A stretch of 53,525 nucleotides of DNA from contig NW_021833963.1 in assembly GCF_006345805.1 (NCBI RefSeq), forward strand, positions 1 to 53,525, given 5' to 3'. The notes beneath the pieces are model-generated. The model was not told where the DNA came from. It was given only the letters and a program-made list of their open reading frames with translations, and made no database searches. Source of the DNA: Octopus sinensis (taxonomy: Eukaryota). A program made the translations under genes and the position numbers. Positions within the stretch are counted from its first letter, which is position 1. Every line of letters starts with the position of its first letter. Positions 12,789 through 39,928 of the stretch are shown in pieces.

Positions 12789-13204
12789 TATTTCTTTATT
12801 GCCCACAAGGGGCTGAACATAGAGGGGACAAACAAGGACAGACAAAGGGGTAAATTCGATTACATCGACCCCAGGGCGTAACTGGTATTTAATTTAGCGA
12901 CCCCGAAAGGATGAAAGGCAAGGTCGACCTCGGCGGAATTTGAACTCAGAACGAAACAGCAGACGAAATACCTATTTCTTTACTACCCACAAGGGGCTAA
13001 ACACAGCGGGGAGAAACAAGGACAGACAAACGGATTAAGTCGATTACATCGACCCCAGTGCGTAACTGGTACTTAATTTATCGACCCCGAAAGGATGAAA
13101 GGTAAAGTCGACCTCGGCGGAATTTGAACTCAAAACGTAACGGCAGACGAAATACTGCTAAGCATTTCGCCCAGCGTGCTAACGTTTCTACCAGCTCGCC
13201 GCCT
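12789..13204 (-). mobile_element. Family M SINE dimer with an 18-bp target-site duplication
   Basis: TGGGGCATATATTTTTCT is identical at 12771-12788 and 13205-13222. Confidence 0.92.
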
Positions 13205-32969: not shown

Positions 32970-33835
32970 TTCCGGGTTCAGTCCCACTGCGTGGCACCTT
33001 GTGCAACTGGATTCTACTATAGCCTCGGGTCGACCAAAGCCTTGTGAGTCGATAGACAGAAACCGAAAGGCGGCGAGCTGGCAGAATCGTTAGCACGCCG
33101 GACGAAATGCTTAGTGGTATTTCGTCCGTCGATAGGTTCTGAGTTCAAACCCCGCCGAGGTCGACTTTGCCTTTTATCCTTTCGGGGTCGATAAATTAAG
33201 TACCAGTTACGCACTGGGGTCGATGCAATCGACTTAATACCTTTGTCTGTCCTTGTTTGTTCTCTCTGTATTTAGCCCCTTGTGGGTAATAAAGAAATAG
33301 GTATTTTGTCTGCTGTTACGTTCTGAGTTCAAATTCCGCCGAGGTTGACTTTGCCTTTCATCCTTTCGGGGTCGATAAATTAAGTACCAGTTAAGCACTG
33401 GGGTCGATGTAATCGACTTAATCCGTTTGTCTGTCCTTGTTTGTCCTCTCTGTGTTTAGCCCCTTGTGGGTAATAAAGAAATAGGTATTTCGTCTGCCGC
33501 TACGTTCTGAGTTCAAATTCCGCCGAGGTCGACTTTGCCTTTCATCCTTTGTGGGGTCGATTAAATAAGTACCAGTTACGCACTGTCCTTGTTTGTCCCT
33601 TCTACGTGTAGCCCCTTGTGGGCAGTAAAGAAATAAGAATTGTGAAGTCACTGGGCAAAATTCTTAACGGAATTTCGCCCGTACATTCTGAGTTCAAATT
33701 CTGCCAAGGTTGACTTTGTTTTCATCCCTTTCAAAATAGACAAAAAAATAAAATACCATTGGATTACTAGTGTTGAGGTAATCTATTACGCCAAACCTAA
33801 AATTGCAGGGCCTTGTGTCAAAACTTGAAATCAAT
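32970..33835 (+). mobile_element. Family C 5' fragment followed by a family M trimer and an older M copy
   Basis: M array starts at ~33068; junctions at 33299/33300 and 33483/33484 (184-bp period). Confidence 0.88.
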
Positions 33836-34848: not shown

Positions 34849-35187
34849 ACACAACTTGTGATCGGTGGAATCAATTGAAGCCCAGCAAAAGTCACCAGTG
34901 GTGTCCCTCAGGGGACTGTCTTGGGCTCGCGTCTCTTTATAGTCTATAAAGAGTATCATAAACACAGGTGATGCCATCACCTTTACACGGAATCAGGACA
35001 AATTTTTTCGAGGAAACCCAGATAAGCTACCTATACCTGGATACAGCTCACTCGACAAGAATTCCCTATCGAATGGACCATGATACCACAAAACTTGACT
35101 TTAAAAGGATTTAGTTAATCCTATCCAGTGGTGCTATTAAGTTAGATATGGCTTGGACCAATCTTTGGTCGAAGTATATCTAAGTTT
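34849..35187 (+). mobile_element. Internally deleted CR1/L2-group LINE remnant
   Basis: VTSGVPQGTVLGSRLFIVY joined to the C-terminal and 3' UTR segment homologous to 37148-37440. Confidence 0.8.
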
Positions 35188-35204
35188 ATATATATATATA
35201 TAGA

Positions 35205-36033: not shown

Positions 36034-36604
36034 CTTTTCTACTCTAGGCACAGGGACCGAAATTTTGTGGGAAAGAGCCAGTCGATCAGACGGACGCCAG
36101 CACGCAACTGGTACTTAATTTATCGACCCCGAAAGGATGAAATGCAATGTCGACCTCGGCGGAATTTGAAATCAAAAGAGTAATGACGGACGAAATACCT
36201 ATTTCTTTACTACCCACAAGGGACTAAACACAGATGAGACAAACAAGGAGAGACAGACGGATTAAGTCGATTACATCGACCCCAATGCGTAACTGGTACT
36301 TATTTAATCGAACCTGAAAGGATGAAAGGCAAAGTCGACCTCGGCGGAATTTAAACTCAGAACGTAACGGTAGACGAAATATCTATTTCTTTATTGCCCA
36401 CAAGGGTCTAAACACAGAAGAGACAAACAAGCGGATTATGTCGATTATATCGACCACAGTGCGTAACTGGTACTTATTTAATCGACCCCGAAAGGATGAA
36501 AGGCAAAGTCGACCTCCGCGGAATTTGAACTCACAACGTAACGCAGACGAAATACCGCTAAGCATTTCGCCCGGCGTGCTAACGTTTCTGCCAGCTCGCC
36601 GCCT
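36034..36604 (-). mobile_element. Family M SINE trimer
   Basis: Junctions near 36200 and 36384 (184-bp period). Confidence 0.9.
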
Positions 36605-37107: not shown

Positions 37108-37147
<40 letters not shown>

Positions 37148-37151
<4 letters not shown>

Positions 37152-37440
37152 TAGATAAACTTAGATGTGTTTCGACCAAAGATTGGTCCAGGTCATGTCT
37201 AACTTAACAGCACCACCTGATAGGATTATTCGAATCCTGTTTAAGTCAAGTTTTGTTTAAGTCAAGTTTTGTTTAAGTCAAGTTTCGTTCAAGTAGTGAG
37301 TTCTTGCTGGGTGAGTTGTATCCAATTATGGGTGGCTTATCTGGTATTCTTTGAAGGAATCTATCCAGACTCCGTTTAAAGTTGATGGGATCCTTTTCCT
37401 CTTTGATCTCCCTCGAGACAAGGTTAAATAGGGCAGGGCC
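37148..37440 (-). mobile_element. 3' end of a CR1/L2-group LINE (second family)
   Basis: Translates GPALFNLVSREIKEEKDPINFKRSLDRFLQRIPDKP...KNSLLE; hairpin GACCAA-TCT-TTGGTC; (ATCTAAGTTT)2 terminus; internal 16-bp x3 repeat. Confidence 0.82.
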
Positions 37441-37574
37441 TGTTGAGGAAAAGAAATTATGTTGCAGTGTACATGTGCGAGGAAAAGAAATTATGTTGCA
37501 GTGTACATATATATATATATATTTCGAACCTGGGTTCTCATTCCTGAGGTATTTTTCAATGTTGTTGTTGTTGT

Positions 37575-38955
37575 TTGATTGATTGATTGATTGATTCCAG
37601 TTTCAGCTCATGAGCTGTGGCCATGCTGGGGCACCGCCATTTGGTGTTGCTACTTGGTTTCACTTCATGGAGGCTTTCTAGCAACTGCTATTTGGTGCAT
37701 GAGAGAGTTCGATGCAGCTGCCCTCATCTGCTCCTCCTGCCGTGAAGTTGGTTCATCTGGGACACCTGACAGGAAGAGATCCAGCTCCATTTTAAAGACA
37801 TCTGTATCCACCCCATGCAGGTCTCTCAGGTCATCGGGAGGATATTGAAGAGCTGTGGGCCTCGGAAGCCCAGGCTACCACAGAATCTGGTCCTACATCT
37901 TGATGGCAAGTTTGGAGTCCTAGGCACCACGCAGTGGCGCCCAGTTCTGGCGTTGCGTAACTCTCGATGCCAAAGTTCAGGACACTTCCCTCCAGGATCT
38001 TCCAGATGTATATTATGGCATATCTTTCCCGCCTACGCTCCAGGGAAATAATTTTAATCTCTTGAGTCTTTCCCAGTAGCTACATTCTGCATAGAGGCTA
38101 TCTTCTTCGTGTAGCTTCGTTGGATCGCCTCAAGTTCTGTGATCAACTTGACACTGGATGGTGACCATAGCTGAGAGCAATAGTCAAAGTGACTTAGGAC
38201 AAGTGTCTTCCAGAGGACCATCATGGTTTTGTTTCTTGTTCTAAAGGTTCTAAGAATCCATCCAGCCAGCCGTCTGCATTTCACTGTCAGTTTAGCAACA
38301 TGTACATGAAAGGTCGCGTCATCACTCATGTGAATACCCAGGTCACGCACTGATTGTGCCTCTGGGATTGCAATCCCTCCGGGTCCAGTGTATTCCTTGG
38401 GTATTGCATTCAGTTTTGCATGCTGATAGTATAAAGCTTGAAACTTTCAGCATTGAACTGCATGCTATTCTTTTCAGCCCACTTGTATATTTCGTCCAGC
38501 TCATATTGCAGGTGCCTAGTGTCTTCAGGGTTCTGTATTGCCTGTGAAACTTTTGTATCATCTGCATAACTTGTGATCGTGGCTCTCCGCGTGGCTGAGG
38601 GCATGTCTGAGAGGGCCATTATGAACAGTAGTGGTCCCAAAACAGTGCCCTGTGGAACACCGCTCACTATTTGCGTGCTAATGGAAGTGGCCCCATTGGC
38701 TACTACCACCTGACTTCTATTCTTCAGAAAGTCGTGAAGCCATTCTCCTAGTTTTCCAACTATGCCAAGATCACGCAGTTTGTGACATATCATTCCATGA
38801 TCGACTTTATCGAAGGCCTTTGCGAAGTCGAGATATATGACTTCCACATTTGAGTGGTTGAGCAGTTGTTTCAGCACCCAGTCATAGTGCTGCAGGAGCT
38901 GAGTTAAGCAGCTTCTTCCTGGTCGGAAACCATGTTGGGTGTCAGGCAGCCAACC
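37575..38955 (-). mobile_element. 5'-truncated CR1/L2-group LINE with a frameshifted reverse transcriptase
   Basis: QHGFRPGRSC, YLDFAKAFDKVDH, SGVPQGTVLGPLLF, YADDTK, RDLGI, DYCSQLWSP, GPQLFNILP; ends in (AATC)n. Confidence 0.95.
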
Positions 38956-38958
38956 TTG

Positions 38959-39037
<79 letters not shown>

Positions 39038-39050
39038 GTTATCGTTATTG

Positions 39051-39120
39051 TTCAGGTCACTGCTTAGAATCGAACTCGGAATCTTGGGGTTAGTAGCCTG
39101 TGCACTTAACCACTACACCA
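39051..39120 (-). mobile_element. tRNA-derived Pol III head (not a functional tRNA)
   Basis: A box TGGTGTAGTGGTTAAG, B box GAGTTCGATTC; no intact acceptor stem. Confidence 0.75.
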
Positions 39121-39176
39121 TAATAATATCGAAAAATACCTTGGGAATGAGAACCCAGGTTCAAAATTTCATCCAA

Positions 39177-39222
39177 GACACCTGGTGAAGGCTGGAGGGT
39201 ATATCAGCCGAAACGTTGTGTT
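39177..39222 (+). ncRNA. Minimal type I hammerhead ribozyme motif with one core substitution, inside a short element (39122-39307)
   Basis: GACAC-CTGGTGA-A-GGCTG-loop-CAGCC-GAAA-CG-TT-GTGTT: stems I and II pair; palindromic AACGTT replaces stem III. Confidence 0.72.
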
Positions 39223-39928
39223 AACAACAAACATGAGGACAAATATCCGTCGAATGTAAATAATGTAAATAATGTACATAATTCCTCATCTCTTAAATAT
39301 AGAACTGATCACTTAGCTGTTTGTTGCAATGCATGCATCTAAAACAAATCTTTACATGGAGCCTTAAAATAAAACCGTGGATCCTTAACTCACTAGTTTG
39401 GAAGCGTGGCTCACCTAAAACCTAACACGAGCACTAAAGCATCATATAGACCCTTAGGGATTATATGGACCCCTGTTGAGAACCTCTGACTTGCATCAAT
39501 TCATCTCTCTAAGAATTCCATATTTGTTCACCTCTCACCTCAGTTTTCGTATATATATATCTATATATTATATATATAATATAATATATATATATATATA
39601 TTTATTATATAGAAGGAGAATTCTACAGGACTAGAAATGTGTCATTCAAGAGGAAATCATCAGGAAGCTAGTTACAAGAATTGTTTTGGCATTTATACAT
39701 TTAGGCAGGTTTAAAGGGGTGGTGGTGGGGGACTTTTTGTGGGTAGGCATAGCGCAAAAATATCATACTTAGGGAGTGGTCAAGGAGTCAGTGGTAAAGT
39801 AGATAAAAGAATAAATAAAAGAATAAAAAAATAAATAGAAGAATAGAGTTTTAGGTAAATAAGGAGACTCTCACTTATACATATACACATATGTATATAT
39901 ATACACACACACACACATATACCTACAC

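Follow-up and report, generated by a model that had tools for sequence, protein, structure and literature searches.

Among the described mobile elements, the closest to the one reported here is Poseidon of Anolis carolinensis, a Penelope-like element (PLE). Poseidon has a single ORF encoding a reverse transcriptase (RT) and a C-terminal endonuclease, partial tandems, and a hammerhead lying over the ORF start (PMC11167929); the octopus element has the same features, its endonuclease being a putative one. In both elements, two copy ends fall inside the first 170 nt of the ORF and so define a 30-40-nt tail, and the partner is inverted and 5'-truncated (PMC11167929; also 10.1101/2021.04.23.441226 and PMC3846280). 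The inverted pair with one tail is the Penelope pattern described in 10.1101/2021.04.23.441226 and PMC3846280, and in Poseidon it has been traced to RT starting at two internal sites in the first 120 nt of the ORF (PMC11167929). In the minimal hammerheads of metazoan PLEs (PMC4209133), for which opposite-strand pairs 100-700 bp apart are noted, helix I has 5 bp and helix II 6 bp, a base is bulged before G10.1-C11.1 and 15.2-16.2 is palindromic. The octopus hammerhead agrees with them in this and differs in its cut triplet, GUU, GUC variants being rare. The octopus family bears on how Penelope-like elements are transcribed and on why their insertions are inverted pairs in which only one copy has the tail.

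The octopus element differs from Poseidon and the related families in its 5' UTR, which is composed of a tRNA-derived head with A and B boxes and an (AAT)n spacer. A tRNA head with A and B boxes, a defined 5' end and some 10^4 copies are shared with tRNA-derived SINEs; here, however, the body codes for the N-terminus of the partner itself, the ends are those of a Penelope and the head lies within an autonomous element. Two of the octopus SINEs of Ohshima and Okada (1994) were reportedly called tRNA-Arg-derived, and the short unit studied here may be one of them. The Sm-alpha element of Schistosoma has Pol III boxes. Sm-alpha and the animal non-LTR retrozymes (PMC7229834 and 10.64898/2026.07.22.740005) are, like the octopus copies, short hammerhead repeats tied to PLE pseudo-LTRs; they are tandem, non-coding and circle-forming, whereas the octopus copies are dispersed, mostly head-to-head and contiguous with an ORF. 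A small-RNA-derived promoter of Pol III type within a terminal repeat is also known from the TRIMp3 elements (Helenus, Ajax, Cassandra), which are non-autonomous LTR elements whose autonomous partners are argued to need Pol II (PMC10886601), whereas the octopus element bears an ORF and belongs to another order. The Penelope features of the octopus element are known ones; its novelty lies in a 5' UTR filled by a tRNA-derived head, with consensus A and B boxes, just ahead of the predicted start codon. The literature searched contained no description of a Penelope pseudo-LTR with a tRNA-derived promoter, the nearest cases being the LTR elements just named and Sm-alpha; repeat catalogues such as Repbase, Dfam and SINEBase may already list the short unit among the SINEs.

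The locus lies in a window of 53,525 nt of Octopus sinensis, i.e., the whole stretch of DNA that was analysed, and its parts are listed in Table 1. A previous sequence-only reading had named a tRNA-like head, (AAT)n, a LINE, (AAC)n, a 37-nt inverted segment, a hammerhead and a tail; all of these pieces were found again, and the 34/37 identity between 37557-37521 on the minus strand and 39131-39167 on the plus strand was reproduced. Their positions also held, apart from the 5' end of the LINE, now placed at 38950, which leaves the five bases 38955-38951 outside any piece. The head of copy B was matched by a profile at 39122-39056 (E 2.5e-15), and its spacer is in keeping with the 16-175 nt measured in 68 of 73 other copies; the final 8 nt of the portion preceding the LINE may represent one half of the LINE's target-site duplication. 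The body of copy B is cut short at the (TA)n, at 37520: partner copies usually extend about 100 nt more, and both this stretch and the target-site duplication have been lost, neither being found in a search to the left of 37521. Copy A is the tailed member of the pair and terminates at the tailed end typical of the family.

Table 1. Features of the octopus locus, in window positions.
Feature	Position	Strand	Basis and remarks
Copy B, remaining body, first 40 nt	37521..37560	-	abuts (TA)n; predicted start codon 37541-37539
Copy B, remaining spacer, (AAC)n	37561..37575	-	sequence
Young 5'-truncated LINE (RT, thumb, 3' UTR, (AATC)n tail) inside the spacer	37576..38950	-	comparison with other copies
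Copy B, (AAT)n/(AAC)n spacer, portion preceding the LINE	38956..39054	-	sequence
Copy B, tRNA-derived head (tRNA about +6 to +73), 5' UTR of the element	39055..39122	-	A box 39120-39110, B box 39077-39066
Head-to-head junction of copies A and B	39120..39122		3-nt overlap; sequence
Copy A, 5'-truncated in the spacer; first 54 ORF codons, frameshifted here	39123..39307	+	predicted start codon 39147-39149
Minimal type I hammerhead within the coding sequence	39177..39222	+	minimum-energy fold
Hammerhead stem I	39177-39181/39218-39222	+	fold
Hammerhead core	39182-39188	+	A-to-G at 39185; bulged A 39189
Hammerhead stem II	39190-39195/39204-39209	+	followed by GAAA and the palindromic stem III
Hammerhead predicted cut	after 39217 (GUU)	+	sequence
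Penelope tail, about 30-45 nt, on one pair member and absent from the other	39270..39307	+	pair comparison

The region is almost certainly a pair of Penelope pseudo-LTRs, and it is probably one insertion of two oppositely oriented, 5'-truncated Penelope end pieces, split later by the LINE, with the head likely setting the transcription start. The order head-(AAT)n-linker-hammerhead-tail, which had been reconstructed from the split copies, proved to be real and co-linear: the body lies downstream on the same strand in 26 of 29 loci selected by their head, and a body motif occurs within 500 nt of the head motif in 16 of 43 head hits, 42% being expected if all were linked. This linkage across the genome indicates that the reconstructed order is correct. 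The same reading had taken this unit for a separate retroposon of about 300 bp, and this idea had to be given up; it had also suggested looking for a Penelope element sharing the terminus, and such an element was found, its RT-bearing ORF being joined to the unit at both ends. On the upstream side, two copies had a common sequence whose translation is the end of a retrotransposon ORF, and a query with this endonuclease end retrieved 29 further loci, 28 of which run on into the head and/or the body, so that the unit is the pseudo-LTR of a Penelope-like element of 2.7 kb. On the downstream side, a query with the 5' part of the ORF found the body directly preceding it in 22 of 30 loci (some of these loci duplicate one insertion); two of the 22 also have the 3' end of the ORF upstream, i.e., a partial tandem. 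A pseudo-LTR formed by partial tandem was seen in three loci (L134, L155 and L164), and L134 starts 2 nt before the first base of the tRNA, runs through head, spacer, hammerhead, tail and ORF, and ends in a second head. The element reads head-(AAT)n-ATG, hammerhead, tail, RT, putative GIY-YIG-type domain and stop, and is repeated in partial tandem.

Near-full-length copies measure about 2.7 kb, and their RT was recognized by Pfam RVT_1 with an E value of 8.7e-9, above the cut-off, while a PDB search of the RT returned only weak RT matches (E 0.01 or worse). Eighteen homologs were found, 17 of them 50-67% identical, and colinear homologs agree with a single ORF. When the translated body and ORF start were compared with the N-terminus of a full-length homolog of 847 amino acids, 59 of 139 residues were identical (42%, E 1e-31), which means that the "linker" carries the start codon and that the hammerhead is coding. 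The body corresponds to the first 54 codons of the ORF. Of 119 copies, 108 have the predicted ATG, and the length variant commonly seen in the body, 9 nt, leaves the reading frame unchanged. The head and the spacer form the 5' UTR, with only 29 nt between the stop of the previous ORF and the tRNA start. An intron of 38-47 nt within the body, considered as a way to frame an ATG, was dropped, the body being already in frame with the ORF, and no intron joint appeared in the body in three RNA runs, about 30 reads deep there. A C-terminal GIY-YIG-type domain can be read from its position and from familiar motifs; the Pfam GIY-YIG model did not match the family's own frames, and in one homolog PF01541 reached E 0.23 over residues 740-809, a part that is 52% identical to the family. 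Domain order and the overlap of hammerhead and ORF agree with the Penelope/Poseidon clade. All of the copies read are broken, none having a stop-free full ORF. The non-CpG divergence of the family is about 5%, which would correspond to about 13 million years at the octopus rate given in PMC13282606, and DNA from six organism labels contains the unit.

The manner in which the copies are inserted is also that of a Penelope. In 120 loci picked by hammerhead match only, 205 body copies were examined, of which 88 are tailed, 100 end 15-45 nt short and 17 are shorter yet. Exactly one tail is present in 59 of the 69 head-to-head pairs, two in 3 and none in 7, one tail being expected in 49%. A flank word of at least 7 nt is common to both ends in 53 of 91 pairs, versus 3.0% in shuffles, as expected for a target-site duplication. 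The proposal that the opposed partial copies of the window derive from one insertion is borne out by this one-tail rule and by these duplications. The depth of RNA reads shows steps at the tailed and at the tail-less ends. No consistent rule emerged when the AC-versus-GT polarity of the loop was compared between tailed and tail-less copies.

The mechanism proposed for the Anolis Poseidon (PMC11167929) could account for these ends. The protein would nick both strands and begin reverse transcription internally, at one site about 120-135 nt and at another 163 nt into the ORF; the two start sites would generate tail-less and tailed cDNAs, which would be joined head to head, often via a palindrome. 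In our own extension of this model, if the pseudo-LTR/ORF junction used were the one at the 5' end of the RNA, the cDNA would run back only to the transcription start, which is likely the A at tRNA position -2, and the resulting piece of 250-350 nt would be a by-product of an autonomous element, SINE-like in look; longer copies would arise from the downstream junctions of tandem transcripts. The octopus family offers about 20,000 natural end-points, the 3' ends falling sharply in two places and the 5' ends in one, and makes the Anolis model of internal initiation testable by counting.

The hammerhead of the window is the minimum-energy fold of 39170-39230, even though its stability alone is not significant (z -1.29). 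Neither a hammerhead nor a tRNA was matched by Rfam in the tight region, and ARAGORN returned no tRNA, a result to be anticipated when the hammerhead is minimal and the tRNA head has decayed; thus, the case rests on the other copies. The intact 41-nt core occurs 1,107 times exactly in the genome (2.72 Gb) versus 0 in a reversed control, so that a chance origin of the hammerhead can be discarded. Among 87 aligned copies the core reads CTGATGA in 44, CTGAAGA in 12 and CTGGTGA in 2; the family core is thus CTGA(T/A)GA, and the CTGGTGA of the window copy was confirmed, with G at 39185. The family majority has the CUGANGA and GAAA cores, the NUH triplet and helices I and II, whereas the window copy departs from the core. 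Stem pairs are retained in 65-74 of 70-75 copies. As to the two tests proposed for the ribozyme, the catalytic core was found, while covariation of the stems is absent within the family, made up of decaying copies, and may be present across related Penelope families: 79 related PLE loci of other organisms gave 17 minimal-hammerhead matches with seven distinct stem sequences, mostly just past the ORF, pairing being itself the search filter. When hammerheads with a GUC site were sought as a possible second family, the 73 matches were nearly all point variants of this same Penelope family. No active dimer was produced by a ViennaRNA dimer fold, and no pile-up of ends was seen at the predicted cut in three RNA-seq runs, as is also the case for Anolis. 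The window copies are decayed and the Penelope copy is probably dead, in line with the previous judgement; judging from its core, with G for A at 39185, the hammerhead is likely inactive too.

The ORF-linked head was compared with 27 host tRNA sequences, covering six isotypes. The closest was tRNA-Arg(TCT), with 48/73 identities (z 6.6), although it is not a unique best, Ala and Lys being close. The family-majority head contains A and B boxes agreeing with the generally known consensus, while the cloverleaf is lost. A pair of A and B boxes was absent from the 350 nt upstream of the hammerhead in all of the six related Penelope families (0/6), which points to a lineage-specific head, and ARAGORN at a lowered threshold gave only noise on the related loci. 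Immediately before the head (e.g., L101:1725-1760), the native UTR repeats the first 20 nt of the head imperfectly and in inverted orientation, which would fit a capture of the head by fold-back.

Exact 18-mers were counted genome-wide, giving 8,882 for the body, 5,447 for the head, 1,042 for the UTR just upstream and 129 for the RT. Correction by the per-copy match rates (112/267, 72/196, 29/66 and 16/30, respectively) leads to about 21,000 bodies, 14,800 heads, 2,400 copies reaching 20 nt further upstream and 240 RTs, to be read as lower bounds since the rates come from loci selected by similarity. Copy number thus drops 6-fold within 60 nt at the head versus 10-fold across the next 1.2 kb. 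The 120 loci contain 65 heads; once the 14 that stop short of tRNA +1 were excluded, native UTR follows in 9 of the remaining 51, while the end lies between 0 and -3 in 17 (at exactly -2 in 7 of them, as also in the near-full-length L134) and between -4 and -8 in 11. The other 14 carry a perfect palindromic, non-native extension, and more would do so if the short-class junctions to an inverted head were counted. This pile-up at the tRNA start likely marks the start of transcription, and a promoter role of the head likely explains the thousands of short SINE-like copies that begin there.

A palindrome with 5-bp arms (-7 to +5) lies exactly at the pile-up and, together with the palindromic extensions, it implies that end-joining or fold-back alone could concentrate the ends. 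The head might be a functionless passenger, left by a past insertion of a tRNA-(AAT)n SINE into a UTR within a Penelope array, with Pol II read-through supplying the RNA and palindrome annealing or fold-back the pile-up; this scenario is considered unlikely. The palindrome is centred at -2/-1, where many junctions and short perfect-palindrome extensions are found, and palindromes at inverted junctions have been described for rotifer Penelopes (PMC3846280). A TATA-like word overlapping the stop codon, 32 nt before -2, is present in 11 of 19 aligned ORF-linked copies, the other 8 being unparsed, and no RNA start was seen in three RNA-seq runs. Nonetheless, at least six copies joined to unrelated DNA stop at exactly -2, for which annealing to a partner is not needed, the A and B boxes are intact whereas the stems have decayed, the head and the spacer occupy nearly the whole interval from stop to start, and T runs are scarce. 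In those three runs the unit is about 100-fold deeper than the ORF, equally in both directions, with no sharp read starts or ends at the head or at the predicted cut; strandedness and poly(A) selection are unrecorded for these libraries, which may come from a sibling species, and their coverage is passive read-through, uninformative on the promoter.

A transcription start at the head is the reading that we favour, with some reserve. That it is driven by the A and B boxes through Pol III can be advanced only tentatively; the TATA-like word might drive it through Pol II instead, although a word of this kind would be fitting for either polymerase. On the sense strand of 12 long copies there are 8 T4 runs versus 45.7 expected and no T5 run versus 10.2 expected; Markov controls gave P 0.02-0.24, and the 12 copies represent one family rather than 12 tests. 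In 27 relatives 124 T4 runs were counted versus 108 expected, 4 of the 27 having none, and the LINE of the window has one T4 run in 1,375 nt. One might picture a Penelope that has exchanged its promoter for a tRNA gene and is transcribed by Pol III from end to end (no T5 in 2.7 kb), with an uncapped RNA that would be translated, a hammerhead in the first codons and some 15,000 SINE-like 5' ends shed; as a whole, this picture is doubtful. If the head were a working Pol III promoter, it would contradict the rule that autonomous retrotransposons use Pol II, and a SINE-like unit would be arising inside its own motor, a route for the birth of SINEs. Automated libraries would likely tag the short copies as SINE or unknown, missing their Penelope ends.

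The separate retroposon of the previous reading would be an independently amplified, Penelope-dependent SINE, its short copies transcribed by Pol III, remobilised in trans and forming a lineage of their own. Short copies do outnumber the ORF-reaching ones by about 6:1, and each full one retains its A/B boxes together with the two sites where RT begins. However, among 123 of the approximately 15,000 copies no short-only subfamily was found: in none of 17 variant columns do short and ORF-linked copies fall apart (p 0.04 at the smallest, uncorrected; 14 columns are CpG decay), the same two subfamilies occur in both, and their divergence is equal (4.4-6.1%). The sharing of subfamilies and age argues against an independent SINE. 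In addition, the body is the N-terminus of the ORF, whereas a tRNA-derived SINE has a non-coding body separate from its partner, and the Anolis template needs ORF sequence past the start sites, maybe absent from the short copies (PMC11167929). This hypothesis appears improbable. A retrozyme, whose tandem hammerhead units would give circles as transposition templates, is very improbable indeed. In its favour are a hammerhead whose stem III is palindromic, a locus in which four copies run in the same direction, and a few reads that go back 55-58 nt. Against it, direct orientation is limited to 13 of 86 neighbouring copies, copies end 45-95 nt beyond the predicted cut rather than at it, the go-back joints lie away from the cut site (one with genomic letters between), and no circle joint at the cut site was present among the matches listed for the three RNA-seq runs, whose libraries are unsuited to this purpose.

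Some further observations concern the pairs. At L233, four tail-less bodies lie in direct orientation, 430-770 nt apart, as a possible tandem array. In L018, L021 and L008, private variants are common to both pair members, as would result from a shared template or from one inverted arm converting the other. At L178:1398, 1413 and 1415 (body columns 103, 118 and 120), about 17%, 12% and 10% of the RNA of run X21 is A-to-G, G being found in 0%, 0% and 3% of the genomic copies, and the RNA runs have more places with A>G and T>C than the DNA run has. This fits A-to-I editing of the inverted pairs, RNA and DNA coming from different individuals and few loci possibly dominating, and would make the pairs candidate double-stranded editing substrates.

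The LINE was regarded as a secondary insertion, and its sequence supports this: its bounds were set against 11 other copies, 9 of which span it with 97-99% identity, as opposed to the approximately 5% non-CpG divergence of the Penelope family, so that it was inserted later. Its RT is matched by Pfam RVT_1 (E 7.8e-22), a longer copy has an endonuclease-like frame upstream, and from its motifs we take it to be a member of the CR1 group. The family is very young: over about 300 nt, the identity to 39 other copies rounds to 100%, and there are 3,168 candidate copies, one of which (L250) has a stop-free frame of 576 amino acids. The ends of another LINE family, presumably R4/Dong-like by its motifs, lie in or beside the (AAT)n spacer at L006, L016, L022, L024, L027 and L028; the spacer has the appearance of an insertion target for LINEs that seek out microsatellites. 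The left neighbour of copy B shows no similarity to the inserted LINE. The repeat adjoining the broken end of copy B (37141-37512) is 74% like a second window copy (34970-35202) and 83% like L284; its translation is, in our opinion, reminiscent of a CR1-type 3' end, and a direct duplication of 34 nt lies at 37445-37508. Lastly, an abundant repeat with internal tandem units of 171-184 nt, which we assume to resemble the octopus tRNA-SINEs, occurs four times in the window (12789-13155, 33116-33585, 36063-36543 and 43063-43415).
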